Virus record (IMG/VR): IMGVR_UViG_3300032132_000004
Span: 1-64,000 of that record
Reading direction: 5' to 3' (one strand)
DNA: 64,000 nucleotides
From: a virus
Numbering within the stretch: the stretch's first letter is position 1; the number at the start of each line of letters is the position of its first letter. Below the pieces are notes generated by a model, which made no database searches, was not told the DNA's origin, and worked only from the letters and a program-made list of their open reading frames with translations. Shown piece by piece: positions 6,868 through 57,808 of the stretch. Position numbers and translations under genes: made by a program.

Positions 6868-6868
6868 T

Positions 6869-11985: not shown

Positions 11986-13046
11986 GCTGTCACTTCCTTA
12001 CAGTTACCAAAATTGGTACCTACTTCGATGTCGATGTCCAAGGGAATGTCGAAGTGGATGTTGAAGATCTCTTTCACAAGAGGGTAGTGTACCATTTCAT
12101 GATAGATGATGTCGAGCATTTGTTTCTCCTCTTCTTTGGGACAAACTGCTTCGATGCTGTCATGCACCGTAGCGACTGCGTATCCTTGCAGCCCTTCCTC
12201 CTCGATTCGTCTATCAATACCAAGTAGAACGGTCATTAGGATATCAGACGCAGGACTTTGGATGGTGAAGTTCAACCCTTGTCTCAGGGATCTGTTAACT
12301 ACCTTGAAGTCTCTACTGCATACGTTGGGAAGGTTCCTTGTGCGACCGAAAATAGAGTAGGCGTATCCGTTCTCTTTGATATAATTATTTACGAACTCCA
12401 TGTAAGAGAAGATGCCTGGGTAGACGTTCTCGTAATCCGCGATAATCTTTTTAGCTCTGGGTAGAGAGATCCCCATAGTCTCACTAAGGTTGAACGCTCC
12501 TCCTCCGTACACGATCAAGAAGGATACTGTCTTGGCGATCTGTCTCTCTGTCTTTGTGATCTCCTTCTTGTTGAACAGGAGCTTACCAGTATATGTGTGG
12601 AGGTCAGCACCTTGGTTGAAGGCAAGCTGCATGTTACCCTCCTTCGCAATGTGTGCTAGGATTCTAAGCTCCATAGCCTTGTAGTCGGCAGCAATAAAAG
12701 ACCAATTTCCAGGGGCTTTATACAGGCTACGAATGTTATTCTCTTTCTCCCTGGGTAGAGTGTGAAAAGAAACACCCATAGCTTCCTTAGCTTTGTAAGA
12801 AGCACAGGACAGTCGCCCAGTAGCAGTACCGTCGAAGTTATATACCATGTACACCTTATTGTGTCCGTTGTATGCAATAGCCTTCTTTGTACCAGTGATA
12901 TAAGTTTTGGTTAGCTTCTCAGACTTACGAAGATCCAACAAGCCTTGCAGGAACTTCTTTGTGTTGCGTAGATCATCCGTACTCTTACCAGCTAGGACTT
13001 CCTTACTGATTCTCTTTCCTTCGTCTCTGTATTTCCAGTTAACCAC
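11979..13046 (-). CDS. polA: Family A DNA polymerase, catalytic (palm/fingers) subunit of a split enzyme
   Basis: TATGRLS, motif A ADYKAMELRILAH, motif B RQIAKTVSFLIVYG, motif C VHDS; GTG start overlaps the upstream stop, with GAGGAG upstream. Confidence 0.9.
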   Translation of the reverse strand: MVNWKYRDEGKRISKEVLAGKSTDDLRNTKKFLQGLLDLRKSEKLTKTYITGTKKAIAYNGHNKVYMVYNFDGTATGRLSCASYKAKEAMGVSFHTLPREKENNIRSLYKAPGNWSFIAADYKAMELRILAHIAKEGNMQLAFNQGADLHTYTGKLLFNKKEITKTERQIAKTVSFLIVYGGGAFNLSETMGISLPRAKKIIADYENVYPGIFSYMEFVNNYIKENGYAYSIFGRTRNLPNVCSRDFKVVNRSLRQGLNFTIQSPASDILMTVLLGIDRRIEEEGLQGYAVATVHDSIEAVCPKEEEKQMLDIIYHEMVHYPLVKEIFNIHFDIPLDIDIEVGTNFGNCKEVTAW

Positions 13047-13515
13047 GTTTCTCTAGCTCCTCATTAGTTTGTTCCAGAAGGATCTTCAAAGTGGGGGCAG
13101 ACACTGAGGGCTTTCCTTTAGTTGTCCTGTCGGGAGGATACAACTCCAAACCTCCTTCTCTGGTGTACAGGATATCCATAAGGTCACCACCTGAAAGGTT
13201 ATCTGTTTTTAACACACCATCGCACTCATAAAGAAGGTCTTCATCTTCAATATTCTTAGTCTTCAAATGCCTACCCACAGAGTCTAGGTTCTCCGTAGCA
13301 ACATCCAAGCCTACGAACTCCTTCTGTGCGAAGGTATTAAGGGAAGGCATAAGGACATGCTCAATGAGCTTCATAACAGGTTTGCCCTCAAGCTTCTCCA
13401 TTACCAGATCAAACAGCTTGAGTGTGAAGTATGTGTCGAAGGCATTTCCTTCTGCACAATCAGACAGGGACATCTCATCCCATTTGAAAGTTTTAGGATT
13501 AGAAATCGTAAGCAT
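13039..13515 (-). CDS. Family A DNA polymerase, middle subunit (ExoIII-like helix plus part of thumb)
   Basis: NAFDTYFTLKLF (ExoIII-like), E..GLDV, TTKGKPSVS thumb-like motif; lies between the exonuclease and polymerase ORFs. Confidence 0.75.
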   Translation of the reverse strand: MLTISNPKTFKWDEMSLSDCAEGNAFDTYFTLKLFDLVMEKLEGKPVMKLIEHVLMPSLNTFAQKEFVGLDVATENLDSVGRHLKTKNIEDEDLLYECDGVLKTDNLSGGDLMDILYTREGGLELYPPDRTTKGKPSVSAPTLKILLEQTNEELEKRG

Positions 13516-14543
13516 TAAAGACTCTCCAACTCTCCAGCAAAGTATAGTTTAACAAGATCCATCAGGCTTCCAGGCATGTTCTCATCTAATTGATGGTGCA
13601 TAACCTTAGTGTCCCAAGGGTTGGTTACTTTGATTCCGTAGTTCAGAAGGAACTTCAGGTCAAACTTAGCGTTGTGAAATACTTTCCTTGCAGGACTCCT
13701 CATAATAATCCTAAGGAAATCTCTTAGACTAAGCCACTTAGAATTTAATACCTCCCCCTTTTTAAAAGGACTATCTTTGTGGTCAACAGGAATAACCCAT
13801 GTCTCTTCTCTGCATGAGATAGAGATGGTCATGATCTTATCCGTAAGGAAGTTCAGTCCTGTAGTCTCAAGGTCTACAGCGAGGTCATCAGTGTAGTTTT
13901 GAAGCTTCTCAGCAAGAGCAGAAACCTCCTCCAAATTCATCAACACAGAGTAGTTAAAGTTACCCTCGGTCTTCTTGCCTAGGATATACTTCTCGTAGGC
14001 ATTCTGAATGTCTCTCTGGAAGAGAGGAAGGTGAGCAGGCTCTTTGATACAAGCATAAGGATGGAAGAGCGGAACTACAGTGCAGGTATTCCCATTTTCA
14101 GTTGTGTATTGGTAGGCCTTACCTCGCTTACTTGTAATTCCACTCTTTTTGATCAACATTTTCATAGCCATGTTACCACAGGGGAACACTAGCTTAGGCT
14201 TCACCTTATCTATAGTAGCCTCTAGGTGTACCCGACAGATCTTCATATCGTTAGAGGTCATGTCTGCCTCTCTAACGTCAGGGCACTTGACAGAGGCTGC
14301 TGTTACGAAGTCCTCTGAATAACTCTCCTTGATGAGCTTGAGGGACTGGGGCATAAAAGCTACGGTCGAACCATGCTTGTAACTTAGAGAATCAGATAGG
14401 AATAGGACAGGAGACTCCCTAAGTTCTTCGTAATCCATGTGAGAATGGCACGGTTTGTTTTTACTTAGGATGGTACAGCCTTCGCAGAGAGGGTTATCCC
14501 CCTGCATCTTACTGTCACTATATAAATTGTTAAGATCAAACAT
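13515..14543 (-). CDS. Family A DNA polymerase, N-terminal subunit: family-4 UDG-like domain plus 3'-5' exonuclease (ExoI/II)
   Basis: CEGC, VKCP, CRVHL and FHP (UDG4-like); DLETTG, HNAKFD and WDT (DnaQ-like exonuclease). Confidence 0.85.
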   Translation of the reverse strand: MFDLNNLYSDSKMQGDNPLCEGCTILSKNKPCHSHMDYEELRESPVLFLSDSLSYKHGSTVAFMPQSLKLIKESYSEDFVTAASVKCPDVREADMTSNDMKICRVHLEATIDKVKPKLVFPCGNMAMKMLIKKSGITSKRGKAYQYTTENGNTCTVVPLFHPYACIKEPAHLPLFQRDIQNAYEKYILGKKTEGNFNYSVLMNLEEVSALAEKLQNYTDDLAVDLETTGLNFLTDKIMTISISCREETWVIPVDHKDSPFKKGEVLNSKWLSLRDFLRIIMRSPARKVFHNAKFDLKFLLNYGIKVTNPWDTKVMHHQLDENMPGSLMDLVKLYFAGELESL

Positions 14544-18896: not shown

Positions 18897-18928
18897 GGCT
18901 CAGTCTGATCTAAATAACAGACTGAGCC
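18897..18928 (-). terminator. Hairpin/terminator downstream of the tail tube gene
   Basis: 11-bp perfect inverted repeat GGCTCAGTCTG/CAGACTGAGCC with a 10-nt loop and a weak U-tract. Confidence 0.65.
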
Positions 18929-18952
18929 CAAGTAGATGCATCCTGATTCTAA

Positions 18953-19546
18953 TTAGGATGGGTTAGAGTAGTTGAACGAATTCATGAAATCGTACTTGAA
19001 GTTCACAGTAAGTTGGTGGAACTGGTTGGTAGAGTAATTGAATTCAGAAGCAGACCAAGATGTGGGGTACACTCCGTAAAGTTCTACAACAGAGTGTGGG
19101 ACTAGAGTGTTGTCTAGTTGAACAACCTCAACCTTGTCTGCTTTAAAAGATGTTCCTGCAAGACCTCCTGGCTGAGAGTTCTTAGTCATTTGTCCCGTGA
19201 TAGGATCGTAAACACTTCGGAAGTAACGGAAGAGATCAGATGCTGTTTCCCTAAGATAAAGGTTGTCGAAGTCTACGGACAGTTCACCTGGGGTAGTCTT
19301 ACCAGGGTAATGAACTTTGTCGTTAACTCTATCAATTACGATAGCTTCGTTCTTAATCTCAAGACCCGTAATCTTTTTAGCAGCTAGAGTTAGATCAGTT
19401 TCGTTAGTAACATCAGCAGGTAGCCCGTGAAAATGAATTTCGAATTGATAAGCTCTTACTGAATCTAGATCAGTAGAGATAGTAGGAAGGCCTTGACCAG
19501 GGGTGAACTGCCGTCCATATTTATCCTTGTAGTATGATTTTGCCAT
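18953..19546 (-). CDS. Tail tube protein (gp19-like)
   Basis: YPGK, GVYPTSW and VNFKYD motifs; directly downstream of the sheath gene. Confidence 0.88.
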   Translation of the reverse strand: MAKSYYKDKYGRQFTPGQGLPTISTDLDSVRAYQFEIHFHGLPADVTNETDLTLAAKKITGLEIKNEAIVIDRVNDKVHYPGKTTPGELSVDFDNLYLRETASDLFRYFRSVYDPITGQMTKNSQPGGLAGTSFKADKVEVVQLDNTLVPHSVVELYGVYPTSWSASEFNYSTNQFHQLTVNFKYDFMNSFNYSNPS

Positions 19547-19557
19547 TTATATTACCC

Positions 19558-21747
19558 TTATAGGTTTCCTAGTTGAGCACTCTGGTTTGTAAGATTGACC
19601 TCAAAGATGAGCATCTCAGCAGTTTTAGTAGGCTTGATTAGAACCTTAGTCCAAAGCTCGTTTCGATCCACTCTAACAGGAGTGTTAGTTGTTTCATCAC
19701 AAACTACACGGAACTCAGTGATACCCCTTCTTCTTCGAATGTTATCAAGGAAGGGATTAAGTACGCCTTCTATTTGTGCCCAAGTAAATTCATCGTTAGC
19801 TTCGAACACAAATCTTTGAGTTGCAGCTAGGATAATTTTTCTTATGTAGATCATTAGTCTACGGATATTGATTCTATCCAGGGCTGAAGCAGAACGTTGA
19901 GTAGTTCTTTGTCCGAAGATAGTAATACCTTGTTGAGGGAAGGCTACGATTGGGTTAACCACATTGCCTCCGCTGTAAAGGCTATCACGATCACCTTGGT
20001 TAAGTTTGACTTCTACCTCGGTAGGCTTAGTGAGTCTACCTCTTCGGAATCCAGCAGGAGCAGCCCAGCTATCAGCTACGGCATCAGTTAGTGCCATCTG
20101 ACGAGCAGCAAAGATGGAAGGATCATACCAGCGGTCCTTACCATCGAAGGTGCTGAATACTTTTACCCAAGGCCAGTGAATAGCTGCATATGAACTATTA
20201 ATAGAAGCGGTTCTAGAACCACCCGTAGTCGAGGATCTACCGTTACTCCAATCAATAGCATCTTGAACAGTTCCTACTGCGACAGGAGGAGACACAAGAG
20301 CTAAGAAGTTTTGTGTAGTTTCCGCCAAAGTAATGAGATTATTCTGTACATTTTGAGTCTGGATGCCTGGGACTAGTGCGATACCGATGTTGAGGATATC
20401 GTCATCTAAAGCTTGCATACCTGTTTTAGGCTCAACAGCATTAGAACCGATGAGAGCAGTATCCTGAGCAGTGCCGCCAGGATCTCCATTAGTCCCTCCT
20501 GCTAAGCTAGTAGCTGCGGCAGGAAGTAGTTTAAGGAAGATAGGTCCGTTAAGAACGGATCTAGATACAGGAGTTACGGACAGGGTATTATCTACAGAAG
20601 GAATATTCCACTGAGAAGTAGTCAAAAATCCAGTATCTCCTAGTAGAGTTCCTAAGTGTCCTGTGAAACTTGCAAGCTCAGCAGCAGTAGCATCAGCACC
20701 ATCTTTAACCAAGTTACCTTTGATAATGTCAGAAGTAGTATTAGTTTCCCCTGTATTAATTACAGTTTCAAGGAAATTACCTGATCCAACAAAGCTTGTT
20801 TTAAATGTTTCCGCTGCTGTGCCGTTTTGATTAACAACCACATTACAATTTTTAGAACCTAAGGAATTTAATGTAATACTGTTTCCACTTGTGCTTCCAT
20901 CTGATTTAGTACCACCATTATATCCTGCTCCAGGGTGGAGAGATTCAATCACATAAGCAGCAGAGTCTGTGCCTGTAGAAAGAATAGTACTTCCGTATAC
21001 TCGCACGGCAGAAGCAATAGCACCAGAAGCTCCAAAAGAACTATTAGATCCTGAACCTGCGTAGACTGCGTGAAGAGCAGACACGCCATTGACTGCTGAG
21101 AAAGTAGTTGAACTACAAGCTGACATGCTCATAGATGCCCCTGAGCCAGCAAAAGACCCGACTACTGCTCCAGATAGACCTAAAGCAGTAGCGCCTGTTC
21201 CTGCTTCTCCGTCATAAAAAACTCCAACCTTATCAGAATCAAGACCTCCACCAATAATCTTACGTAATGCTTCTGCTTGGCTAACCGCTGTACCCGCAGG
21301 GATAGAAAAGTCTTTACCTTGGCTAGAGTTATCTGTAAATTGTGCTATACCATCATTATTGTATACCTGAATACGCAAGGTAAGAGGAGTAGCTACTCCA
21401 TGTCCTTCGCTCACTGAAGCAGCACCAGAAACAATAACTGCTGGGCAGGATCCAATACTCATAGTAGCAGAAGCATCAAGAGCACCATCAGCGGCTCTTA
21501 CATAATAAACAGAGTTAGTCTGCTCTAGAATTTCTAGAGCACCCTCAATACCTTGGCCTGTAAGGTTTTCGCTAGGTTCCCCGAAAGTAGAAACGAGGTT
21601 GTTTTGGCTAGTAATTAAAGTAGCTTTGTTTGTAGGACCTTTGGATGCAAAGCCTACTATACCAACAATAGACGTATTAATAGAGGGTGCATACTCTGAG
21701 ATATCTTTTTCAATAACGTAAACACCGGGACTAACAAAATTAACCAT
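19558..21747 (-). CDS. Tail sheath protein (gp18-like)
   Basis: FVSPGVYVIEKDIS, WAAPAGFRRG, FGQRT, ALDRINIRRL, CDETTNT, IKPTKTAE. Confidence 0.97.
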   Translation of the reverse strand: MVNFVSPGVYVIEKDISEYAPSINTSIVGIVGFASKGPTNKATLITSQNNLVSTFGEPSENLTGQGIEGALEILEQTNSVYYVRAADGALDASATMSIGSCPAVIVSGAASVSEGHGVATPLTLRIQVYNNDGIAQFTDNSSQGKDFSIPAGTAVSQAEALRKIIGGGLDSDKVGVFYDGEAGTGATALGLSGAVVGSFAGSGASMSMSACSSTTFSAVNGVSALHAVYAGSGSNSSFGASGAIASAVRVYGSTILSTGTDSAAYVIESLHPGAGYNGGTKSDGSTSGNSITLNSLGSKNCNVVVNQNGTAAETFKTSFVGSGNFLETVINTGETNTTSDIIKGNLVKDGADATAAELASFTGHLGTLLGDTGFLTTSQWNIPSVDNTLSVTPVSRSVLNGPIFLKLLPAAATSLAGGTNGDPGGTAQDTALIGSNAVEPKTGMQALDDDILNIGIALVPGIQTQNVQNNLITLAETTQNFLALVSPPVAVGTVQDAIDWSNGRSSTTGGSRTASINSSYAAIHWPWVKVFSTFDGKDRWYDPSIFAARQMALTDAVADSWAAPAGFRRGRLTKPTEVEVKLNQGDRDSLYSGGNVVNPIVAFPQQGITIFGQRTTQRSASALDRINIRRLMIYIRKIILAATQRFVFEANDEFTWAQIEGVLNPFLDNIRRRRGITEFRVVCDETTNTPVRVDRNELWTKVLIKPTKTAEMLIFEVNLTNQSAQLGNL

Positions 21748-21757
21748 AATTTAACTC

Positions 21758-21934
21758 CTATGCGTTGGAAATCTTAAACTGCCTTCTGCGGTGAAGGGTC
21801 TTAATCTGCTCTGTGATGTAAGGTTCAGGAACTACAATACTTTCTCCTGGCTTCATATTACGTTCTTTGCATCCTTTTTCTGTGTTAAAGTATACGGTAA
21901 TAGATTGGAGACTATCGTTTTTTACAACTTTCAT
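21758..21934 (-). CDS. Small hypothetical protein heading the sheath operon
   Basis: Start moved to ATG 21934 (MKVVKNDS); preceded by TACATA and AGGA. Confidence 0.6.
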   Translation of the reverse strand: MKVVKNDSLQSITVYFNTEKGCKERNMKPGESIVVPEPYITEQIKTLHRRRQFKISNA

Positions 21935-21990
21935 AAGTAATTCTTTCCTATAATATGTACTACAGAGAATAGTGTTTTTTGAAAACTTTT

Positions 21991-22806
21991 TTATCCACAC
22001 CCATTATTGATTGTAACCCTAATGGTATGGGTGCTGTTGTTCTCATCAGGCTCTGTAGTGGTGTTGTGGATATCAGCATAGATTCCAAACACATACTCTT
22101 CTTGGTCTACTTGGTATAAATCATTATACTCAAAGACTCCTGATATCTCTTGACCTGGGGCTAGACCAGCCACATCATGCTGTGCTACTAGCTCAGAAGG
22201 GGGGTTAAAAGGTATGGAAGCTACGGTTAGGACAGCAGTAGCAGGAGCATCCTCTGGGTTTAGGAATCTCCAAAAGCCTACTACAAAAGGCTGTGCTGCA
22301 TCGTTCCCTGTGTTCCTAACAGTGTAGGAATACTGTACAGTGTCAGGCCTTTCCAAGCTAATATTAGCTAGCTGAATAGGGTTTGTTCCTTCCCAGCAAT
22401 GAAAACGTGCTGCGGGCATATTGATAGGAGGGTAATGACCTTGCCCAGAGGCGGCTAAGAGCAGCTTGTCAGCAGCAAAGGTGGTCACCTGTAGGTCTGC
22501 CTTAGGAGCCTCTCCAGTGGTGTTAGAATCGCCTGCAAAGCCTGTACCCGCTGTGACCCTCGTTTGGCCTGCGATGGTCCTAGGGGCCGCGTGAGGGCTC
22601 TTACCGTGCGAGGTAATGGCATCCCCCTGTAGGGACACTTTCATACCCTCTACAAAGACGTTCTGAGAGCCAGGACCAATAATCAAACCCCCTGCTGTGT
22701 CATTCTCGACACGGCTAACCCCTTTTCCTTCTATAGTAACTCTACTACTTCCAGTTTGAGGATGCCCACACGAAGCAGGGGTTCCTTGTACACTAATATC
22801 AGGCAT
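21991..22806 (-). CDS. PAAR spike-tip protein with a C-terminal CARDB/Ig-like domain
   Basis: Tandem PAAR-type repeats (CGH..TGSSRVTIEG, GSQNVFVEG, GDAITSH...H); YTVRNTG...EPDENN CARDB-like pattern. Confidence 0.82.
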   Translation of the reverse strand: MPDISVQGTPASCGHPQTGSSRVTIEGKGVSRVENDTAGGLIIGPGSQNVFVEGMKVSLQGDAITSHGKSPHAAPRTIAGQTRVTAGTGFAGDSNTTGEAPKADLQVTTFAADKLLLAASGQGHYPPINMPAARFHCWEGTNPIQLANISLERPDTVQYSYTVRNTGNDAAQPFVVGFWRFLNPEDAPATAVLTVASIPFNPPSELVAQHDVAGLAPGQEISGVFEYNDLYQVDQEEYVFGIYADIHNTTTEPDENNSTHTIRVTINNGCG

Positions 22807-22812
22807 TATTGA

Positions 22813-25116
22813 TTAAATACTAACCATTGCTTGTTCTGATTGAACCCCTTCGGCTGTAGAAGAGTTAGCAGATATTGCATAGTAGTATGTACCTCCCCCA
22901 GGAGGTGTATCGTTGTTTATGAAAGTATCTGTTGTTGTTCCTACGAAGACCATTTCTTTAGCGAAACTTACAGGGTCATCATTACGACCATCCCCACCAC
23001 CAATAGCGGGTAGAAGGTGCCCAGGAGTAATCAAATCACTAACTGCTTGGGCACCAGTAGCGGATCTCCAATTGCTATTTACTACAGTGGGATTTGTAAT
23101 AGAACGATATAGGTTGTAAGAAGTGGCTGCTTCAGAAGTAGTAGCTGTGGATGCTACCACAGCATCCCATGTAAGATTAACTGTACCATTTCCATTATCG
23201 GTAGCTTGTACATTTTCCGGGGCTGGGATCCAACCATCCCAAGCCTGAGAATCAAACTCTCCTCGACCAGCAGTACTTGTACTATTTTCAAAACCATCTT
23301 GATTTCTGAAGTACTTAAAGAACCAAGATTTATGGTGATTTTTCATAAAGCGGCTAGCCCTTACGTTATAAGGATCCTCATTACGAGGGAACAAGGCCCA
23401 TAAAGCAGTAGCTCCTCTATTTTCAAGGTGAGGATAAAACGTGGAAAAGCCCGCCGATCCACCATCATCAGAGCATAAGCATCCAAAAGGAGACACATCA
23501 GTATTGGAACCAGTAAAAGGCCCATCACTTCCGACATGCCAAAGACCTCCTTCAATAGAAGGAGTAGTAGATAGGCCTAAAAGAGCCCTAGCCCAAATGG
23601 AATAACCCCAAGTAGCTAATCTGTGACTACCCTTCCCAAAATAAGTATTGCCAGGACCTCCCCACGATGGGTTCCCTCCTGGCTGTATAGGAGTCCCACA
23701 AGTCTTACCAAATCCAGGGTTATCATTGTCCTCTTGTTCTCCGTTATGGAGGTATAGACTGTATCCAAGATCCCTTAAGTATTTATGATAAAAAGGAGCA
23801 CCATTGATATGGGTACCTCCAACATAAGTACATGTAGTCCCTGGTCCGTTAGCGTATTGGAAAGCAGCAGTGTGTGGGCTAGCTTGGTCTACTGCCTGTG
23901 CCATAGATGCTAACATATGATGAAGTGGTTCCCAGCTAGGATCCTTACCCAAAGCAGCGGCAGATATTATCAAAGACATGCGGGCACCGTACTCATAAGG
24001 AGCGTACCTACCATAACCGTGTGCAAGCCAATCCCTTTGGCCCATATTCTCATGACCATGCATTCCCCAGTGCTGAGGAACATTAAAAGCAAACTCAAGT
24101 ATGCGTTGAGTTATTTCCTCATCGTCATCACTCCAAGCATTATTGGGATCAATTAGCCCAAAACCATTAGCAAGTTTTGCGTGAGCACGATAAAGAACAA
24201 TCTTTTCCAACTGTAAAGCTTGATTAGAAGCAGATCCACCTGAGGTCCATTGGAAATCAGTTGGTAGATTAGTAGCAGCGGCAACAGATGTGATACCATC
24301 ATAAGTAGTTCCTCCCCATCCTGTTACCTTATCTATGGCTATGTTTTTAAAGTGTTCCCACAAGGCTACATTGTAAGAAGGAGAATCAGTACTAGCCCAC
24401 ATCCCTGATCTGTATTCAGGTTGCGAAGAACATTTAATAATCGTACCGTCTGAGCCTACAGCTTTAGCTAAATTCAAAAATCCTTCGGGTAGAGTGTCTG
24501 CATCAGCACCTATAGAGGTAATAGCTCCACTCTTAGGAGTTCCATTGCTCCAATGAACACCATAGGGATTTCCAAGCGTAATTGGATTATTTGGATATGT
24601 AACCTGATCCATACTTACAAAACCGTACCAAGGATTTCCATACGCTACCTGAAGAGAATCACCTTCTTGAAGAGTTACTGTTGCGGTAGCTAGTTGGTTA
24701 GGAAGCATACTCCCACCTTGTTGCACAGAACCATAGGTAGGCGCATCTGTATAAAGCCATGAGAAGGTGGGATCAAAAGTTGGGTACGTAGCAGTTACAT
24801 AATCCATCGTCTGTGAGTGGACTCTATAATAAACCGTAGCAAACTGTCTCGTAACTCCTGTGTGGCGACCATCGAAACCACTATGAATCCCAGGAGGGTT
24901 GACAGCTATAACATAATCTCCAGGCGTAACCCAACCGCCAGGGTATTCTTGATACCCTCCAACAGCCCACACACTCTGAATGGCTGGATTTACTGCTGTT
25001 ACTTTAACACCCATTAGATCCAAAGATCCATTAGGTTTTGGGAAAGCAGCAACAGTTAATGGTGGTGCTTCTTCTGGGGTTGCATAAGCTTCTAAACTGT
25101 AGGGTGATTCTTGCAT
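22813..25116 (-). CDS. Virion-associated protein: Trp-rich central domain and C-terminal FN3 domain
   Basis: PAPENVQA...LTWD...YNLYRS...YYYAISA...EG..S FN3 pattern; in frame with the upstream ORF. Confidence 0.7.
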   Translation of the reverse strand: MQESPYSLEAYATPEEAPPLTVAAFPKPNGSLDLMGVKVTAVNPAIQSVWAVGGYQEYPGGWVTPGDYVIAVNPPGIHSGFDGRHTGVTRQFATVYYRVHSQTMDYVTATYPTFDPTFSWLYTDAPTYGSVQQGGSMLPNQLATATVTLQEGDSLQVAYGNPWYGFVSMDQVTYPNNPITLGNPYGVHWSNGTPKSGAITSIGADADTLPEGFLNLAKAVGSDGTIIKCSSQPEYRSGMWASTDSPSYNVALWEHFKNIAIDKVTGWGGTTYDGITSVAAATNLPTDFQWTSGGSASNQALQLEKIVLYRAHAKLANGFGLIDPNNAWSDDDEEITQRILEFAFNVPQHWGMHGHENMGQRDWLAHGYGRYAPYEYGARMSLIISAAALGKDPSWEPLHHMLASMAQAVDQASPHTAAFQYANGPGTTCTYVGGTHINGAPFYHKYLRDLGYSLYLHNGEQEDNDNPGFGKTCGTPIQPGGNPSWGGPGNTYFGKGSHRLATWGYSIWARALLGLSTTPSIEGGLWHVGSDGPFTGSNTDVSPFGCLCSDDGGSAGFSTFYPHLENRGATALWALFPRNEDPYNVRASRFMKNHHKSWFFKYFRNQDGFENSTSTAGRGEFDSQAWDGWIPAPENVQATDNGNGTVNLTWDAVVASTATTSEAATSYNLYRSITNPTVVNSNWRSATGAQAVSDLITPGHLLPAIGGGDGRNDDPVSFAKEMVFVGTTTDTFINNDTPPGGGTYYYAISANSSTAEGVQSEQAMVSI

Positions 25117-25119
25117 AAT

Positions 25120-28100
25120 TTAATCCGTTAAAGCTGTTACTACATAATAGTACGTAACCCCGTTAGTTAGACCAGTGTGTAAAAAGTTACTAAGAGTAAG
25201 AATAGAACCATTTACCTGTGTATAAGGTCCTCCTTGATTAGTAGATTGATAAACGTTGTAGCCAAGGAGGTTACTTTCAGTATTATCATTCCAATAAAGA
25301 TTTACAAACTCATCCCCTGGGACTGCTGTAAGGCCTGTGGGTGCTACTACTGGAGGAGGAATATTTGGAATGCCCGCTACTTCAGCACTTTGTGGGGATT
25401 GGAACGATCCAAAGCTATCCCTAATAGTAGAAGGAAAAGCAGTTACTACATAATAGTACGTAACCCCGTTAGTAAGTCCTGTATCTACATAGGAGTTAGT
25501 ACCTAAATAACGAGGCACTACTTGCTCATAAGGTCCTCCTGAAATTAAAGATCTCCAAAGTAGATAAAATACAGGATCTGTATTATCAGTCCAAGTAAGA
25601 CTAAGAGTTCCATCGTTAGGAGTTACCGTTAGCCCCGTAGGTGCTGCTGGTATGGAGTCTACATACCAGCCAGGATTAATAAGAGGTTCTGTAAAAGATA
25701 CAATCCCAGCAGTTTGTATACTATCATGAAGCCATACGTTGTTAGAAACAGTAGGATTGCCTTGAAGTGAAACCCCTAAAGGAGTATCAACTTGGTAACC
25801 TCTAAGAATTCTATTATTTTTAAAAACTACATTCTTGGGAATATTATCAGAGTTACCATCATCAGGTTCTCTGCCTGTAATATTAAGAAATCTTATACCT
25901 GCATTGATCCAGTTATCTTCAATAAGAACGTCCTTAATACCTCCCTGGGGGACATTACCCCCAAGACCAATCTGCAAAGCAACACCATCTCCCCAAGGAT
26001 TCCCAGGTCCAGCATGTTCACCAAGTACTTCCATGGCTTGATGATGAGGAATATCAAAGAAGTTTCCTTTAATATCTATACCATTTCCTTTTCGTACTTC
26101 TAAAGCATTAAAAATTTCTGTATTGTAACCTAAGTGGTGAATCCAGTTTGCTTCAATAGTAGTACCAATACTATTTAATGGAGTCTTAGCATCTACTACA
26201 ATACCATCCTGCCCCATAGAATGAAGCTCACAGTATCGTAGATTAAAATCATAGCCTATTATCCCTGCTTTTGCAAAGTTTTTAATTTCTGCATTCTCAA
26301 TAGTAACTCCTCCAAAGAATCTATTAGGAGAAAGACCATCAAGAGGAGCATTGCATATAATACCATAGTCTGGTCCGTCTGTAGGGGAGACAGTTGATCC
26401 TACAACACTGAAGTTTCTAAGAGTTACAGGTATAGTAGTGGCACACCATATTGGACCGTCATGAGAGAAGTTTTCAAATACCGTTGCCTCCGTAGTCTCC
26501 CCAGTTACAGGATCATAATTGCTAAAGTTCTGTGCAACAGCGTCATCATTAATAACAAGTACACCATCCTGATTAATAGCAAAAGAATATGAGTCAGAAG
26601 CTGGTACTAAACTCCCTGCCCATCCTGTATTTCCTGCACCTGGGGTAAGGTCTATAGGGGGTGGTGCTCCTTCGCCTGAGGCTAAAGCTGTTATCTGCTC
26701 TTGCGTAAGAGCTTGAGCAAACAGACGAACATCATCAATACGCCCATGGAATGATTTGTCAGAGGGTCCACCTGGGGGCTGGTTTCCTATTGCTACAGGA
26801 ATGCCAGCGTTAACTGCAACGCTCCCTGTTTTAGGAGTGCTGCCAACCTCAAGTCCATCTAGGAACAACTTCATTGTTGTTCCATCATATAAAGCAACAG
26901 CATGATGCCATGTATTAGTTTGCAATGCTCCTTGAGAAGCTATAAGAGTAGAAGTTGTAGTACCAGTCTTTAGACGGAAGCGTAAGCGAGTTTCTCCTTG
27001 CTCAGTAATAGTACTTAGCATCCAATGATGTTCTTGCTCTTGCACTCCTACAGCTTTGGACATTATTCTAGCATCAGTAATACCAAAGGAATCAGCATTA
27101 AACCAAGTGGCTAAAGTAAAAGCACTTCCAGGGACATCTACATTCCCAACATCTACACGATCCTCTTCTCCATCAAAAACTAAGGACCAAAGGGAGGACT
27201 GCTCAGGAGAGGGATCTCCCCAAGTCGCACCTACTATAGTTCCATCATTAAATCCATACCCTGAGTCTACTGTTGTAAGACCTGTTCCTTCTTCGAAAGA
27301 CCAGTGGCCCAAAGGAGGACCAAGTGGAGGAGGTGGCGCAGGAGTGGCAGTAACTCCAGAACTCTGTGGAGACTCCTCTGCATCTGCGTTTACAGCAGTT
27401 ACAACATAGTAGTACTGAGTACCATTTTCTACAAGATCGTCTAAGTAAGAAGTACCAGTAATTAAACCAGCGTTTTGTAAAACAAAGCTACCCCTTGGAG
27501 ACTCTGAACGGAAAACATTATACCCATCAATGTTTGATTCTGAGTTAGCGTCCCAAGTAAGGGTTACAAGTTCGTCCCCTGGGTTTGCATTTAGACCTGT
27601 AGGTGCTGCTGGTGGGCCTGTGGGGGGAGCAGTTCCTGCTCCGTTAAAAAAACAAAGCTCTCCAAACAAAGGTGAGGAAGGAGGAGAGGTAAATCCATTA
27701 ATAATACTTCTTTCCGGGGGATAGTGCTCATCGTCGAATACAGTAGCATACATATCTGTATCTTCTATACCGCACCACCTATTTCCTGTAACTACAGTAG
27801 GATTAGCTCCTCCTTGGTCAAGAGAGATAGGACCAAACGCATATAAATCACCAAATATATTATCTCTAACAAAACAATTTTGAGGGAAAGGATAAGAGGC
27901 ATTCTTTCTTTCAACGTATACAATATTATTACCACCGTTCATCCAATTGTTATCAATACGAAGACCTTCAGGTCCTCCATCTATTCCGTGGGTATCATTA
28001 CTAGATTGAATAATTACAGCAGCATTAGATTTATAAATCCAGCTACCTCCTAAAGTGTAAGGAGCAGTATGTGTAGCGGCTCCTGCTATTGCAGCTAAGG

Positions 28101-29142
28101 TATCATAAGGAGCTTCGGGTCCAAGATTGTTATAATCATTAGGCCAAACAGGATTTGGGTCGCTTGGGTTTTTTGGAGGGGGGTTTGGCCCAAACCCTTC
28201 TAAAGATTGCGTCCACCTACCAGCCCCCGCAAGCACAGGTGATCCATTAAGCATTACGGTTTCCCCTGTTACATTACCATTAACAGCCCATGGATAACTG
28301 CCTCCTTGTATAGATCCCATAGGAGCTAGATTCGGAGTTTGTAAATTTCCTGTAACACCTCCCTTAGGGACTGATAGTGGATCTACCGCAGGAGTATGCG
28401 TGCCAGGGTGATTAGGATGGGGCATATCACAAAAGTTATGGTGAAAATTAACATCCCTACCTAGATTTCTAATCTGAAGTGCATCACAATGAGAGTGTAT
28501 CCCGCGACCGTTGTGATGAATCCAGTTATTATTTATCTCAGACCTCATAAGACTAAGCATAGAATCAGCACCAGCATCATGCATATTATTATGGTGCCAA
28601 TGATTTCTAGTCCCCTCTTCTACACCCCCATTACATATAATATGCTGGCTAATAGGATTAAGCATTTCACAAAAACGAATCTCCGTGGAGGAGTGTAAAG
28701 TATTGGCAGAAGGTATATTAACACATTGAGAATTAGAAAATGCTGCATCAATCCAACAATCTTCAATCAATATGTTATTGGCTTTTTGAGCTTCCGTACC
28801 TTTAATTAATATGCTACGTAGATCACACTTCTTTATAGTACAATTACTATGCCTGATTTCTATATAAGAAGTAGCAATAACATTTTCTATAATTTGATTA
28901 TCTGCTGTTGTTTTTATACGTGTTCCATTCCATAAGGGGTGATTTTCTTGAGAGATAAAAGTAATATCAGTCTTCTCTACTGGTGTATGTCCTATAACAA
29001 TAGCCCCAGGTCCAGTGTTGGTAGGTCCTGGCTTTTCTACTCCTCCAATAATATTTTGAGTTGGAACTCCGGTATCTCGTACAGTAACAATACGACCTTC
29101 TTTTCTAACTTTCTTATAATAACGATCTCTACGTTGTGCCAT
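25120..29142 (-). CDS. Large fibre/appendage protein: two right-handed beta-helix regions, FN3 repeats and a LamG domain
   Basis: I.NNW repeats and HCDALQ (beta-helix); three FN3 units (APTGL..PGD..V.L.W...YYYVVTA); LamG (WHHAVALYDG..MKLFLDG, F.GRIDDVRLF). Confidence 0.8.
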   Translation of the reverse strand: MAQRRDRYYKKVRKEGRIVTVRDTGVPTQNIIGGVEKPGPTNTGPGAIVIGHTPVEKTDITFISQENHPLWNGTRIKTTADNQIIENVIATSYIEIRHSNCTIKKCDLRSILIKGTEAQKANNILIEDCWIDAAFSNSQCVNIPSANTLHSSTEIRFCEMLNPISQHIICNGGVEEGTRNHWHHNNMHDAGADSMLSLMRSEINNNWIHHNGRGIHSHCDALQIRNLGRDVNFHHNFCDMPHPNHPGTHTPAVDPLSVPKGGVTGNLQTPNLAPMGSIQGGSYPWAVNGNVTGETVMLNGSPVLAGAGRWTQSLEGFGPNPPPKNPSDPNPVWPNDYNNLGPEAPYDTLAAIAGAATHTAPYTLGGSWIYKSNAAVIIQSSNDTHGIDGGPEGLRIDNNWMNGGNNIVYVERKNASYPFPQNCFVRDNIFGDLYAFGPISLDQGGANPTVVTGNRWCGIEDTDMYATVFDDEHYPPERSIINGFTSPPSSPLFGELCFFNGAGTAPPTGPPAAPTGLNANPGDELVTLTWDANSESNIDGYNVFRSESPRGSFVLQNAGLITGTSYLDDLVENGTQYYYVVTAVNADAEESPQSSGVTATPAPPPPLGPPLGHWSFEEGTGLTTVDSGYGFNDGTIVGATWGDPSPEQSSLWSLVFDGEEDRVDVGNVDVPGSAFTLATWFNADSFGITDARIMSKAVGVQEQEHHWMLSTITEQGETRLRFRLKTGTTTSTLIASQGALQTNTWHHAVALYDGTTMKLFLDGLEVGSTPKTGSVAVNAGIPVAIGNQPPGGPSDKSFHGRIDDVRLFAQALTQEQITALASGEGAPPPIDLTPGAGNTGWAGSLVPASDSYSFAINQDGVLVINDDAVAQNFSNYDPVTGETTEATVFENFSHDGPIWCATTIPVTLRNFSVVGSTVSPTDGPDYGIICNAPLDGLSPNRFFGGVTIENAEIKNFAKAGIIGYDFNLRYCELHSMGQDGIVVDAKTPLNSIGTTIEANWIHHLGYNTEIFNALEVRKGNGIDIKGNFFDIPHHQAMEVLGEHAGPGNPWGDGVALQIGLGGNVPQGGIKDVLIEDNWINAGIRFLNITGREPDDGNSDNIPKNVVFKNNRILRGYQVDTPLGVSLQGNPTVSNNVWLHDSIQTAGIVSFTEPLINPGWYVDSIPAAPTGLTVTPNDGTLSLTWTDNTDPVFYLLWRSLISGGPYEQVVPRYLGTNSYVDTGLTNGVTYYYVVTAFPSTIRDSFGSFQSPQSAEVAGIPNIPPPVVAPTGLTAVPGDEFVNLYWNDNTESNLLGYNVYQSTNQGGPYTQVNGSILTLSNFLHTGLTNGVTYYYVVTALTD
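25136..25473. repeat. Exact 32-bp direct repeat between the last two FN3 modules
   Basis: GTTACTACATAATAGTACGTAACCCCGTTAGT at 25136-25167 and 25442-25473. Confidence 0.9.
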
Positions 29143-29147
29143 TGGAG

Positions 29148-29864
29148 TTATTCTTCCTTAAGTTCTTCTATTTCCCCTGTAGAAGTTACTAGAAATTTAG
29201 GGTTAGGAATGTAGGTTCTGAATACTATATTAAATGTCTTCTTCAAAATCCTATCTTCTTTGTCAGTAGCTGTAACTTGACCAGCATCTTCTTCACTTGT
29301 TATGTATGCTTTTGCTAAGGTAGAGAAGCTTGTTGGTACATTCATTTCTGGATTAAATTTTAGTCTAACTTGTTCTGCTATTTGATCCATATCAGAAGCA
29401 TACTTAGACCATACATTTAACTGATAGGTAATGTTTACTGCTTTAGGAGCAAAGCTAAGGACTCTAATAGCTCTATGCTTACTCTCATCCCAGTACTTCT
29501 CATGCACAAGGATACTCTCTGATCTCTGTCGTTCTGTATCGTCCTCTGATATTGTCTGGGATACTGAGAGGATAGGAAGTATGATATTATTCTCTTGGAA
29601 GAGCTTGGCTACACTACGTTCTGCGTTAGCGTATATACATTTTATGTCATTGAACTTCTCTTCGGAATCAATATAACCTACATCGTTAAAAGATGCGATC
29701 ATAGCTCTTAAAGATTCCTTGTAGACAAAGGATATATTGTGCTTAGCCTTTGTCATCTTAGCTATCTTCTTTTTGATATCACCTTCTCTAGTAGGAAAAT
29801 ACCTGTTCCTACTCTCAAAAGAAGAGGTGTCTAGCTCGTTGCTTATGTAATATTCAAAAGGCAT
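29148..29864 (-). CDS. Tail terminator/sheath stabiliser (gp15-like)
   Basis: YANAER, LPILS, P.AVNITYQL, DMDQIAEQ...FNP. Confidence 0.75.
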   Translation of the reverse strand: MPFEYYISNELDTSSFESRNRYFPTREGDIKKKIAKMTKAKHNISFVYKESLRAMIASFNDVGYIDSEEKFNDIKCIYANAERSVAKLFQENNIILPILSVSQTISEDDTERQRSESILVHEKYWDESKHRAIRVLSFAPKAVNITYQLNVWSKYASDMDQIAEQVRLKFNPEMNVPTSFSTLAKAYITSEEDAGQVTATDKEDRILKKTFNIVFRTYIPNPKFLVTSTGEIEELKEE

Positions 29865-29866
29865 GG

Positions 29867-30589
29867 TTAGTTATCTGTAGCCACACAGCAATCAGTATTT
29901 CTATAAGTATTATCACAGATTAGCATTTTATTATAAAAGTCGGTCATAGCTCCAATAAGATCGTTTTCAAACTCATCATTTGCTTCTTTACGCCCATCCA
30001 TATTACAATACATTTCAAATGCTTGTAGATAACATTGCCTCCTTCGGTGTAGGTTCTGGTGCGTGCTATCACATATTCCCTGTGCGGTAGTAAGTCGTCT
30101 CCCTGCCTCCATATAAAGAGGACTAAAGTATTTAAACATAGCACTATCTAAATCAGCAGCTAAACCATTTTGCGCTGATAGCAGACAAAGAATCCAAGCT
30201 GCTCTTGCCGCAGCCTCACATGCTGCATCTAGAACGAAGCCAGGGGGACAAGTTTTCTTTGGAGGAGAAGGATAATTAGAGGCCTCTCTTATAAGATCCA
30301 TAACTGATTCAGTTATAGAGTCTGGGCTCCTCCAACAATCTGAGGGAGGCTGTATTCCCCCTGAGCTTTGAGCAGCATACTGTATTTCGTCCTCTCTCTT
30401 TTCCCTTCTCCTAATTAGATTTAATTTTTTAGCATAGGCTAAAGGGTCCTCCCCCACCTTAGCCGCTGGAACTGTTCTTGTGTTAGCAGTAACAGGAGTA
30501 GTTGTTACATTAGCGTCTGCAACAGGAACGGTAACTAGCTTTCCATCTTTCCTAATAGTTACAAATTCTTTATCTCTTCGTTTTGGCAT
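29867..30589 (-). CDS. Cysteine-rich hypothetical protein
   Basis: 240 aa with 10 Cys in the C-terminal two-thirds; basic N-terminus resembles that of the 1340-aa fibre. Confidence 0.65.
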   Translation of the reverse strand: MPKRRDKEFVTIRKDGKLVTVPVADANVTTTPVTANTRTVPAAKVGEDPLAYAKKLNLIRRREKREDEIQYAAQSSGGIQPPSDCWRSPDSITESVMDLIREASNYPSPPKKTCPPGFVLDAACEAAARAAWILCLLSAQNGLAADLDSAMFKYFSPLYMEAGRRLTTAQGICDSTHQNLHRRRQCYLQAFEMYCNMDGRKEANDEFENDLIGAMTDFYNKMLICDNTYRNTDCCVATDN

Positions 30590-38146: not shown

Positions 38147-40894
38147 CTAGCGTGGAGTAGAACGCTTTGTTGGGGGTTCTGTGGTCGTTGGAGGCACAAC
38201 CTGCTCTCCTGTGTTGAGGGACTTGATGGGTTGGAAGGTGTCAGTTGTTGCAGCAGCTTTAGCCTTTCTCTGCACTAGTAGAGACTTGAAGAAGTTGATC
38301 CTTTTGTCTGCACTTTTAATAGGAGGTACCACCTTTACATCGCTAAAAATACCATTTCTAATAGAGTCCCTTATGAGGGGGAAATTCTCTAAACCAAGTA
38401 GTCTATTGAACTGATGAAAGTATAACCTACTAAACACATCATGCTCTGTAACTGATTTTCCAATACCGTTAAAACCTAGGAGGTAGTTATCATCCATCTC
38501 AGTGATAATCTCTTTCAACAACCGTAAGCCTGTCTTCTTTCTAGCTGGGGTAAAGGTGGAGGCTGAGACTAAATCATTACCTTCCCTATATCCTGTAGTG
38601 AATATCTTATCCCCAGGGGTGATTTGAGTAATCCTAGCTTGGGTATTAGGGTTCCCCCAAACGTCTGTTCCATCCCTTCCATTGGTTTGCAAACGTACAA
38701 ATTTGTTTGTTTGTTCTTTATTTAGGTTTGGAACTATACTAGTCCTACACCTTAGCTGTCTGATCACTGTGCCAGAAGTCTCCATAGACACGATCTGAGA
38801 CTTACTATTGAAGACGTTTAGATCGCTTCTGTTAGTGGGATATACTATTATGTACCAAGGGATTTGCCTAGTTAGGAGAGGTATTGTTTTGTTTACCTTA
38901 GGGGAATCAAACAGAATGTCTGTCTGCTTCATAGTAAGAGAGGAGGTATCCTCTATATAATCCAGAATAATATCCTCATCATCCAAGAGGAATACCCTGT
39001 TATTTGCTTTGTATTTTATATAAGCGTTCACTTCTGCAAGACCAGCATCAGTAACGGTGTCTGCAAGCTCGTATCTTGCCGTAGTATCTTTAAGTAAGAA
39101 GGATCCAGTAGGGCTTGGTTTGGTTGTAATAGAGCTTAGTACACAACTAAGCATGTAGTACGGTTGTCTGGTAGCAGTTAAAGAGTAGTTGAACTCTATG
39201 TTCGATAGGATACTTGCGCTAACCTCCAGTGTTCTCCCTGAGTCCCCCCCTAGGAGGTTGATAGCTTTTTGCCTTGTCCTCTCTGGGATTAGGAATGCGT
39301 GATCCTTCTCAGACTTAACAAAAAGATCGTAAGTCTTATCCCCTCTCTTCACCTTGAAACAATCTCCGTCGTGAATAGAAAGGGAACTTCTCTCAATGAA
39401 AGTATCATCATCGTTAAGGTAGAACTGTCGTATCTCTCCGTCAATCTTACAATCAATCCTCTTGTCTGTGTCAGAGGCTAGAGTCTTCCAGTTAGGAAGA
39501 ATATTCTGCATGTTACCCTTAGCGTTGGAGACATCTAAGCTGAACATATCCCGCTCAATTAAAGACACTGCTGCAATTTCGTTAACCTTATCATGCACAC
39601 TTCGTTTAATAAGAACTGGTTCCCTACTCTTACTGTCTTCTGCTAAGGTTCTAAGTAGGCGTAGAGGAATAGCATCTAAAGTTCCATCCAAAACTCTAGA
39701 ACCAATCATAGAGAATATTTGATTCTTATTTAAAGGAGTACCGTCGTAGTTTCTTATCTCCTCTAGGAGAGTCCTTACTTCTGGCTTCAAGCTTCTGTAC
39801 AAGGAATCAGGGGTTACCCCTGCTGTGTAGTTACTATTCCAATTTCCTGTATTATCTTGGTTAGACAAAACATACTCTATATTACTGTCAATCTCCTTGT
39901 TAAATAGCTCAGTGTGTCTGGAAGTATTCCTAGCTATGGTAGGAGCAGGAGGAGTTAAATCAAAGGCAAGGTCTGCATCCTCTAGTCCCATAGGATTTTC
40001 TTCTAATAAAGTTCCTATGATAGTAGGATCGTTTAGATCAATTTCTCCTGTTTCCATTGCTGCATTAACTAAAGAATCTACATTCGTACCTACGTTCCCA
40101 TTTCCTATAGGAGGAGTAGAAGGTTCAATTAAACCTCCTCCTATACTAGGAGTTAAAGTATCTGCTAGAGTTCCTACATTACCTCCTAAATCATTGTCGC
40201 CTGGATCAAGTAAGCCTTCCCCTGGATTTGGGGCTAGGTTATCTTCAAACGTTCCTACGTTCCCACCGAAAACGTCTCCACCCCCAGGGGTTACGGTACC
40301 TCCTCCAGGGAAGGGGTTTTGAGGTCCAACGGGAATTCCTCCACCTCCTCCTCCTGGGGCTGGTCCTGGGATATCATCGTTTGGGCTTTCTGGGGGGGGC
40401 CTATTACAGTTATTTTCACAGTCTGCCTGGGTCCTATAAGCACCCCCTCCAGGGGGAACGGTTATATCTTGTGTAAAAGAAGTACACTTATAATCAGGGA
40501 AGCCTGAGCACTTCCAGTATGTTACTAGGGTTCCGCCGCCTCCGCCTCCTCCTCCCCCACCTGGGGCTGCTGGGGAAGGTGGGCCAGGGGAAGTTGGTCT
40601 AGGGGCCTGAGGACCTCCTCCTGGCTGTCCTGCGGGTCCTCCTCCTGTGCCTGGGACTACTGCGGGTGGTGGGGGATTGCCTGGAGGGGGCACAGGACCA
40701 GGAGTGCTAGGTCCAGGCTGCACTGGTCCTGTGGGTACTTCAGGGGGAGATGGCTCTAAAGGAGGTATACTAGGCCCAGGCCCAGGATCACCTCCTCCGC
40801 TATCAATAGTTCCCCCGCCATCAAATTCAGGAAAGTTGCCGGGACCAAATCCAGGGAGAAAAGTCCCGCAACCGAATGTGGGATTCTCGGCCAT
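38147..40894 (-). CDS. Large putative structural protein with a Pro/Gly-rich N-terminal region
   Basis: 915 aa; last gene of the baseplate/fibre run; long PG-rich tract, a small 4-Cys module and GNVGT repeats. Confidence 0.65.
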   Translation of the reverse strand: MAENPTFGCGTFLPGFGPGNFPEFDGGGTIDSGGGDPGPGPSIPPLEPSPPEVPTGPVQPGPSTPGPVPPPGNPPPPAVVPGTGGGPAGQPGGGPQAPRPTSPGPPSPAAPGGGGGGGGGGTLVTYWKCSGFPDYKCTSFTQDITVPPGGGAYRTQADCENNCNRPPPESPNDDIPGPAPGGGGGGIPVGPQNPFPGGGTVTPGGGDVFGGNVGTFEDNLAPNPGEGLLDPGDNDLGGNVGTLADTLTPSIGGGLIEPSTPPIGNGNVGTNVDSLVNAAMETGEIDLNDPTIIGTLLEENPMGLEDADLAFDLTPPAPTIARNTSRHTELFNKEIDSNIEYVLSNQDNTGNWNSNYTAGVTPDSLYRSLKPEVRTLLEEIRNYDGTPLNKNQIFSMIGSRVLDGTLDAIPLRLLRTLAEDSKSREPVLIKRSVHDKVNEIAAVSLIERDMFSLDVSNAKGNMQNILPNWKTLASDTDKRIDCKIDGEIRQFYLNDDDTFIERSSLSIHDGDCFKVKRGDKTYDLFVKSEKDHAFLIPERTRQKAINLLGGDSGRTLEVSASILSNIEFNYSLTATRQPYYMLSCVLSSITTKPSPTGSFLLKDTTARYELADTVTDAGLAEVNAYIKYKANNRVFLLDDEDIILDYIEDTSSLTMKQTDILFDSPKVNKTIPLLTRQIPWYIIVYPTNRSDLNVFNSKSQIVSMETSGTVIRQLRCRTSIVPNLNKEQTNKFVRLQTNGRDGTDVWGNPNTQARITQITPGDKIFTTGYREGNDLVSASTFTPARKKTGLRLLKEIITEMDDNYLLGFNGIGKSVTEHDVFSRLYFHQFNRLLGLENFPLIRDSIRNGIFSDVKVVPPIKSADKRINFFKSLLVQRKAKAAATTDTFQPIKSLNTGEQVVPPTTTEPPTKRSTPR

Positions 40895-57807: not shown

Positions 57808-57808
57808 A

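Follow-up and report, generated by a model that had tools for sequence, protein, structure and literature searches.

A fibronectin type III domain divided between two adjacent genes of an uncultured marine T4-like myovirus

Two genes that meet inside one domain

We examined 64,000 nucleotides (nt) of virus DNA, positions 1 to 64,000 of IMG/VR record IMGVR_UViG_3300032132_000004 (the window below), which are the first 64 kilobases (kb) of a 73-kb linear contig that CheckV rates as 64% complete. On its minus strand two neighboring open reading frames (ORFs), encoding proteins of 1340 and 767 residues (P0001 and P0002, respectively), meet within a fibronectin type III (FN3) domain (Table 1). The junction reads ...GTA ACA GCT TTA ACG GAT TAA ATT ATG CAA GAA TCA CCC... 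P0001 thus ends GVTYYYVVTALTD (YYYVVTALTD, then TAA), and after a single ATT codon P0002 starts MQESPYSLEAYATPEEAPP. An initial annotation, made from the letters of the window, had claimed that an in-frame TAA splits the FN3 domain and that the missing last strand opens the next ORF, and our reading of the minus strand bears this out. The joint length of 2109 codons that it gave is also correct, as the two ORFs share one frame and 1340 codons, the stop, an isoleucine codon and 767 codons precede the final stop.

From N to C terminus P0001 contains a conserved segment of 30 residues, a first beta-helix, FN3-1, a LamG domain, a second beta-helix, FN3-2 and the truncated FN3-3. Pfam recognizes Laminin_G_3 at residues 657–817 and fn3 (PF00041) at residues 513–595, the latter being FN3-1 with 39.3 bits against a cut-off of 25 bits. 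The two complete FN3 copies end ...VTAVNADAEESPQSSGVTATP and ...SFQSPQSAEVAGIP and show what FN3-3 is without; the intact copy ends quoted in the initial annotation, ...YYYVVTAVNADAEESPQSSGVTATP and ...FQSPQSAEVAGIP, are both present in the 1340-residue protein. FN3-3 itself matches Pfam fn3 over profile positions 2–70 of 84 with 21.1 bits, below the cut-off. A phmmer search of the PDB sequences with the read-through sequence (X at the stop) gave 3mpc_A as best match, with query residues 13–88 on chain residues 7–81 of 103; the alignment stops at X and so does not map the P0002 N terminus directly onto a solved G strand.

For the G strand we made a scoring matrix from 569 segments beginning ES (ES plus 10 residues) that follow the F-strand motif YYYxVxA in 119 homologous FN3-rich proteins, the phage's own proteins being excluded from the training set; the consensus of these segments is ESGYSNEVSATP. 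The N terminus of P0002 reads (M)QESPYSLEAYATPEEAPPLTVAAFPK, and its segment ESPYSLEAYATP scores 26.3 bits, compared with a training mean of 24.2 bits. It is the single best of the 66,522 stop-free 12-mers in the six frames of the window; the true G strand of FN3-1 comes second with 18.6 bits. The Pfam fn3 match to the read-through sequence lengthens merely from positions 2–70 to 2–72 and does not reach the leader; because it stops short of the G-strand region, we built a subfamily hidden Markov model (HMM) of 96 positions from 250 of these FN3 domains instead. The truncated FN3-3 matches this model at positions 7–80 with 87.5 bits, and the read-through sequence at positions 7–96 with 97.1 bits, QESPYSLEAYATP being placed on positions 84–96 with high posterior probability. 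No single polypeptide thus holds all seven strands (A–G) of this domain: P0001 lacks HMM positions 81–96, which residues 2–14 of P0002 supply. Judged by its sequence, the leader of P0002 is the missing G strand of FN3-3.

Residues 1–14 of P0002 would thus belong structurally to the preceding FN3 domain, and residues 15–23 form a linker. Nine distant homologues keep the motif YFEKTxGxLDYMGVKVT inside a longer protein, behind varied upstream regions, which places the start of the P0002 body near residue 24 (FPKPNGSLDLMGVKVT). In two of them, P0130 and P0131, the region ahead of the motif resembles, by eye, an FN3-type domain complete with its last strand. As read from these sequences, the split falls inside the FN3 domain, in the F–G hairpin, nine to twenty residues before the linker where modularity alone would put a gene boundary.

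An AlphaFold2 model of P0002 alone (18-row alignment) has a predicted template modeling score of 0.72 and a mean predicted local distance difference test (pLDDT) of 62.4. Its residues 1–20 have a pLDDT below 50 and contact nothing, and the remainder folds into a beta-sandwich, a mainly helical domain and an FN3 domain. The C-terminal FN3 domain aligns with 3mpc_B (Z 13.3, root-mean-square deviation 1.6, 88 residues aligned) and takes up all the Foldseek and VIA-align matches of the model. The family is rare, with 17 matches in 1.84 billion representatives; P0002 has no Pfam family, and an IMG/VR search with it returned no relative. Alginate lyase, DUF4962 and heparinase II/III were considered as identities for P0002 and rejected, as their Atlas scores of 0.76–0.82 lie below the meaningful level. 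The sole match to P0001 in the corresponding IMG/VR search was a beta-helix protein of 38% identity on L002, an unrelated contig that is the same as L004.

Table 1. Features at the junction of the two genes and next to it (window positions)
Feature	Position	Strand	Remarks
T4 gp15-like tail sheath stabilizer gene, directly upstream of P0001	29148..29864	-	Pfam T4-gp15_tss, 40.7 bits (cut-off 25); PHROG 227
Upstream fiber ("anchor") protein P0001	25120..29142	-	1340 residues, ORF translation
FN3-3, strands A to F only	25123..25380	-	P0001 residues 1255–1340; ends 3 residues past F-strand motif YYYVVTA
In-frame TAA, F–G loop of FN3-3	25120..25122	-	Same stop in Tara contig L003 at 4761..4763
ATT spacer codon, stop to start	25117..25119	-	Identical in L003
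ATG start of downstream ORF	25114..25116	-	P0004, P0141 and P0125 (other assemblies) called from same Met
Leader MQESPYSLEAYATP, by sequence the FN3 G strand, at P0002 N terminus	25075..25116	-	14 residues; matrix and HMM match
Downstream protein P0002	22813..25116	-	767 residues: leader, linker EEAPPLTVA, beta-sandwich, mostly helical domain, complete C-terminal FN3
Exchangeable cassette, body of downstream ORF	22822..25088	-	Replaced by unrelated 1519-nt body in L003

Conservation of the junction and exchange of the downstream body

The arrangement recurs in other assemblies. All five upstream variants, which come from ENA, JGI, Logan and Tara assemblies, end YYYVVTALTD; they are P0001 (1340 residues), P0055 and P0143 (1342 residues each) and P0142 and P0144 (870 residues each). 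Four of the five downstream gene calls start MQESPYSLE, namely P0002, P0004 and P0141 (767 residues), the latter two of which differ from P0002 at 13–14 residues, and P0125 (520 residues). The Tara contig L003 (10,375 nt) reads ...ACG GAT TAA ATT ATG CAA GAA TCA CCT TAC..., with identical stop, spacer and start. We also compared Logan contigs of four runs from four studies over positions 22000..29500. The junction is crossed by contigs from three of the runs (X5 record 10, X6 record 19 and X9 record 23), and run X4 has no contig across it. The X5 contig shows 3 differences and the X9 contig 4, all of them listed and all outside 25114..25122. The list for X6 gives 32 of its 35 differences, again with none at the junction; the sole one listed between 24981 and 25253 is 25102 G>A, a synonymous change in a Pro codon that is common to L003. 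The runs with the junction sequence are marine or seawater metagenomes. Relatives thus keep both the stop and the ATG in the Tara contig, in the gene calls of other assemblies and in the contigs of three runs, a comparison that the initial annotation had suggested as a check.

One X5 contig joins 25135 to 25442, omitting 306 nt (102 codons, one FN3 unit) and retaining the stop and the ATG; the two sides of the skip share 32 letters, and it may be an assembly collapse of tandem FN3 repeats and not a real variant.

Behind the conserved junction the downstream gene has been exchanged. A blastn comparison of the window with L003 gives two blocks, 29876..25089 (91.6% identity) and 22821..18901 (97.9%), and nothing aligns between them. 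L003 keeps TAA ATT ATG and downstream codons 1–9 with one synonymous change, remains identical through ...TTA GAA G, and then diverges; identity resumes about 3 nt before the stop of the downstream ORF. The differing stretch is therefore exactly the body of that ORF, 2267 nt in the window and 1519 nt in L003, and the L003 product P0125 is unrelated to P0002. Just past the breakpoint the window encodes AYATP and L003 encodes VAATP, in different codons, and the L003 G strand scores 27.6 bits, against 26.3 bits for that of the window. That relatives might swap the downstream ORF and yet keep an ESPYSLE..ATP leader, as the initial annotation had envisaged, is thus seen in one relative. A short conserved N-terminal peptide in front of an exchangeable body, as set out by Latka et al. 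(2019), is what these two genomes have, with bodies of the 767- and 520-residue forms behind the same nine codons.

The upstream protein is itself mosaic, as its sequence comparisons indicate: P0001 and P0055 are 96–100% identical in residues 1–800 and 1301–1340, and 54–78% identical in residues 801–1300. The 870-residue variants P0142 and P0144 are without beta-helix 1, and the X6 contig skips the same stretch, 27616..29040 (P0001 residues about 33–505). Beta-helix 1 (P0001 residues 76–495) is 33% identical to P0125 over 465 columns. Since it is absent from the 870-residue form and resembles P0125, this module is found either at the front of the upstream protein or in the distal protein behind the leader. 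At least three architectures share the junction, 1340 + 767 in the window, 1342 + 520 in L003, and 870 + 767; the last pairing is suggested by P0142 and P0004, each of which lists a longest contig of 111,145 nt.

A putative joint between two proteins, and the alternatives

We think that the locus probably encodes two separately translated proteins that are joined by strand complementation in trans, and, from the sequence comparisons above, we put the probability of this at about 0.55. The initial annotation had offered this reading too, and both sequence-level checks that it named, retention of the stop and the ATG and a swap behind the leader, came out as the reading predicts. P0001 and P0002 would be separate, translationally coupled genes, and in this uncultured marine T4-like myovirus their products would build a single virion appendage. 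At its C terminus the upstream protein would have an FN3 domain without its last (G) strand; the downstream protein would supply that strand in a 14-residue N-terminal extension, behind which come a short linker and a variable body. After synthesis the extension would insert beside strand F and complete the FN3 fold in trans, which is donor-strand complementation, and the distal module would be fastened to the fiber without a covalent link. Because the DNA of the socket and of the first nine codons of the plug is conserved, recombination could replace the downstream body and leave the joint compatible. A further step, that an FN3 domain of the fiber is deliberately left one strand short and that the 14-residue plug supplying this strand is borne by interchangeable distal modules, enzymes or receptor-binding units, is in our estimate evenly balanced. 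The beta-helices and LamG suggest that the modules function in glycan binding or degradation, and the position of the genes beside a gp15-like gene suggests an appendage on the neck or tail.

The spacing of the F–G loop supports a start at the junction ATG. Of the 569 homologous FN3 loops, 292 have 5 residues between the F-strand Ala and ES, 241 have 6 (533 for the two lengths) and 3 have 7. Counted jointly, the two chains (LTD + MQ) have a spacing of 5; read-through (LTD-x-I-M-Q) would make it 7. A Met two residues before ES occurs in only 3 of the 569 loops, and a Met anywhere in the loop in 18. That a stop coincides with a rare, correctly placed Met and with an odd loop length argues for selection of independent initiation, or for its acquisition along with the stop. 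The gap between the two ORFs is 3 nt, and 38 of the 48 neighboring ORF pairs on the minus strand are 10 nt or less apart or overlap, so the gap is typical, in keeping with translational coupling. In its Shine-Dalgarno match the ATG ranks 25 among 48 gene starts, a middling place that does not discriminate either way.

Several observations weigh against joining of the two proteins in trans. As many as 32% of all minus-strand ATGs equal the junction ATG in their Shine-Dalgarno match. The fifth downstream gene call, P0145 (506 residues, from an ENA contig of 39,682 nt), is P0125 minus its first 14 residues and starts at the Met right after the leader, which is either a choice of the gene caller or a variant with an untranslated leader. 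The relatives that carry the junction are all close (flanks 92–98% identical in DNA, last 40 residues of the upstream protein 100% identical), which makes the conservation one of shallow time depth that a recent common ancestor or a recombination sweep could explain. In IMG/VR neither the pattern YYYxVxA + 3 codons + TAA + 1 codon + ATG nor the leader pattern had a match, in searches from which the window's own record was possibly left out. The known cassettes are of just two types; with residues 1–40 of P0125 as query, a word search (E ≤ 10, 5.8 billion cluster representatives) gave two candidates of 286–910 residues, of which only P0145 passed, a weak test for further cassettes because a match of 9–14 residues hardly reaches E ≤ 10 in 5.8 billion. 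The swap pattern would also arise from recombination inside a conserved FN3 coding stretch without any binding. Finally, that the leader would complete FN3-3 is a proposal made from sequence. A complex prediction for P0001 residues 1255–1340 with P0002 residues 1–45, made without alignments or controls, scored 0.02 against a mark of 0.34 and counts neither for nor against the joint, and an AlphaFold2 model of the read-through fragment with X, made from the single sequence, was unusable (mean pLDDT 46.6).

The alternative that survives best, which we hold to be unlikely, is a tolerated gene fission without a special joint, in which the FN3 domain and the body were once one continuous protein, until a stop and a restart arose in the F–G loop in an ancestor of this small lineage. 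Both halves would still be made, the leader would be a leftover, P0002 would be attached elsewhere or unattached, and the truncated FN3 domain would be disordered. A fused ancestor is plausible, as distant homologues have the P0002 body joined to other upstream regions, FN3-like by eye in P0130 and P0131, and the P0145 call from the Met after the leader also fits; moreover, the split relatives are all too close for a useless leader to have decayed, and binding in trans is itself a deduction from sequence. One point mutation, however, explains neither the stop together with the rare Met nor the atypical loop length, and the scarcity of a Met at the matching position also makes the simple recent nonsense mutation offered in the initial annotation unlikely. 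The persistence of the split in several marine data sets and at least three architectures, and the high-scoring G strand that both cassettes keep past the breakpoint, also speak against this reading.

Programmed readthrough of the stop, the second explanation that the initial annotation had offered, would yield a 2109-residue fusion beside the 1340-residue form, hence long and short fibers, and is compatible with a restart at the ATG; we found no support for it and regard it as improbable. In its favor, the ORFs are in frame, the product would have a complete FN3 domain (the HMM match runs across X to the end of the model), and recoding extensions of phage structural proteins, for example Ig-like or FN3 domains added by frameshifting, have reportedly been described. 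TAA, however, is generally regarded as the least leaky stop in bacteria. In the window it ends 38 of 49 ORFs (TAG 6, TGA 5), and in 9 of the 38 it is followed by A, as at the junction; it is thus an ordinary stop, and no change of the genetic code is involved. The 73-kb contig, at 64% completeness, has no tRNA gene, and shuffled sequences fold as well as the 121 nt surrounding the stop (z -0.22). The 7-residue loop of a read-through product is the spacing found in just 3 of the 569 homologues. No fused protein occurs among the database matches of 1160–3693 residues, and among the matches listed coverage of the junction region (701 residues) is at most 42%, as much as the upstream part covers by itself.

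A sequencing or assembly error, or a nonsense mutation private to one assembled genome, might be suspected in a single metagenomic contig of 64% completeness, and its chance is negligible since the same stop and ATG stand in the independent Tara contig and in contigs from runs of three other studies and are implied by the ENA, JGI and Logan gene calls.

Related systems and the gene neighborhood

In chaperone-usher pili an Ig-like subunit without its G strand is completed by the N-terminal extension of the next subunit, and a tight non-covalent chain results. Both elements have counterparts here at the level of sequence: the Ig-like domain is again short of its G strand, and the protein encoded next begins with an extension that matches this strand (G-strand scores of 26.3 bits for the window and 27.6 bits for L003). 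The differences are that P0001 would be a phage virion protein and no periplasmic pilin, that its fold is FN3 and not that of a pilin, that there is one joint and not a polymer, and that complementation is deduced. General PHROG and Pfam scans, which took in 32 and 14 window ORFs, respectively, named no periplasmic chaperone or outer-membrane usher, though no search was aimed at them; neither would be expected to serve a virion protein. By analogy, the P0001/P0002 joint would work like a donor-strand complementation system without being a member of that class; PMC10104325 treats one chaperone-usher pilus.

A second comparison is with the branched or anchored receptor-binding protein (RBP) systems of the Klebsiella KP32 and KP34 groups, K1-5, K1E, SP6 and G7C. 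As described in PMC6872550 and PMC13352976, the first protein of these systems is anchored in the virion, and the second RBP, from a neighboring gene, has a conserved N-terminal peptide (from 7–11 residues upward) and a horizontally exchanged body; the peptide is proposed to dock on the first protein. The likeness lies in the conserved codons 1–9 and in the body swapped between the 767- and 520-residue forms. In those systems, however, the socket is a complete T4gp10-like branching domain, whereas here it would be an FN3 domain cut short by a stop, so that plug and socket are two pieces of one domain. A T4gp10-like branching domain was not detected in P0001 with Pfam at E ≤ 0.01 and PHROGs at E ≤ 1e-5, no profile-profile or fold search having been made; the families found in P0001 at these thresholds are LamG, fn3 and virion structural only.

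Complementation of FN3 fragments was reportedly described by Dutta, Batori, Koide and Koide in Protein Sci in 2005 (cited in PMC11666773). The idea of an FN3 domain cut in two and reassembling is the same, but that was laboratory engineering of human FN3, whereas this split would have arisen in nature and been maintained in a virus population. Programmed frameshifting is also reported to add Ig-like or FN3 domains to phage structural proteins in short and long forms (for example PMC6316719 and PMC4759559). In those systems the decoration domain depends on a recoding site at the end of an ORF; here, in contrast, the second ORF follows a TAA in the same frame and starts at an ATG of its own two codons further on, and we found no recoding signal. 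Literature searches, which did not extend to subscription journals and supplements, turned up no account of a split Ig-like or FN3 joint in phages.

If the two products do join in trans, the 14-residue plug and the 86-residue socket would form a minimal and genetically portable connector for exchanging distal fiber modules, a natural counterpart of engineered split-domain tags. It would add a mechanism of RBP docking to anchor domains and to T4gp10-like branching domains with their docking peptides, and it would mean that a virus uses donor-strand complementation, the principle of chaperone-usher pili, to attach and swap its host-recognition modules. It would also explain why the gene boundary lies inside a domain and not in a linker, the domain itself having become the joint, and it would supply an annotation signature, an ORF that ends just past an FN3 F strand followed by one that starts with a G strand. 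Should the split be a mere tolerated fission, the locus would still be a clean case, from an uncultured marine myovirus, of cassettes being exchanged at a conserved FN3 linker.

The PHROG and Pfam scans also named the genes of a contractile-tail phage: tail sheath, tail tube, a gp6-like baseplate wedge, a T4-type major head protein, prohead protease and a head-tail adaptor, as well as DnaB, ribonucleotide reductase, SbcCD, ThyX and a family-A DNA polymerase. The best matches of the major head protein in the phage collection are T4-like cyanophages at less than 30% identity, which makes this an uncultured, distant T4-like marine myovirus. In the same collection blastn with 1101 nt gave no match, and tblastn with a 601-residue junction fragment gave one FN3 match, of 38% identity, in a Moorella phage. 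The P0001 and P0002 ORFs sit between the gp15-like gene and the sheath gene. The ORF after P0002 (21991..22806, minus strand, 271 residues) matches the PAAR motif with 25.6 bits, short of the cut-off of 27 bits, and a CARDB domain with 28.1 bits, and its DNA is 97.9% conserved relative to L003; it may be a spike-tip protein encoded beside the fiber genes.

The family-A DNA polymerase lies in two ORFs within 11979..14543 (minus strand) and is a second split gene of the same phage. The ORF at 13515..14543 matches PHROG 17 profile positions 523–785 and that at 11979..13046 matches positions 929–1236; between them is a 158-residue ORF (13039..13515) with a weak DUF7120 match as its sole one. Among the replication genes, 4837..6900 (minus strand) encodes a 687-residue HEAT-repeat protein that includes PBS-lyase HEAT-like repeats (HEAT_2, 104 bits). 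Around the gp6-like baseplate gene, at 38147..53052 and 55099..61568 on the minus strand, lie six large ORFs of 838–1471 residues that had no Pfam or PHROG match at the thresholds used and are presumably baseplate and fiber proteins of uncharacterized families.

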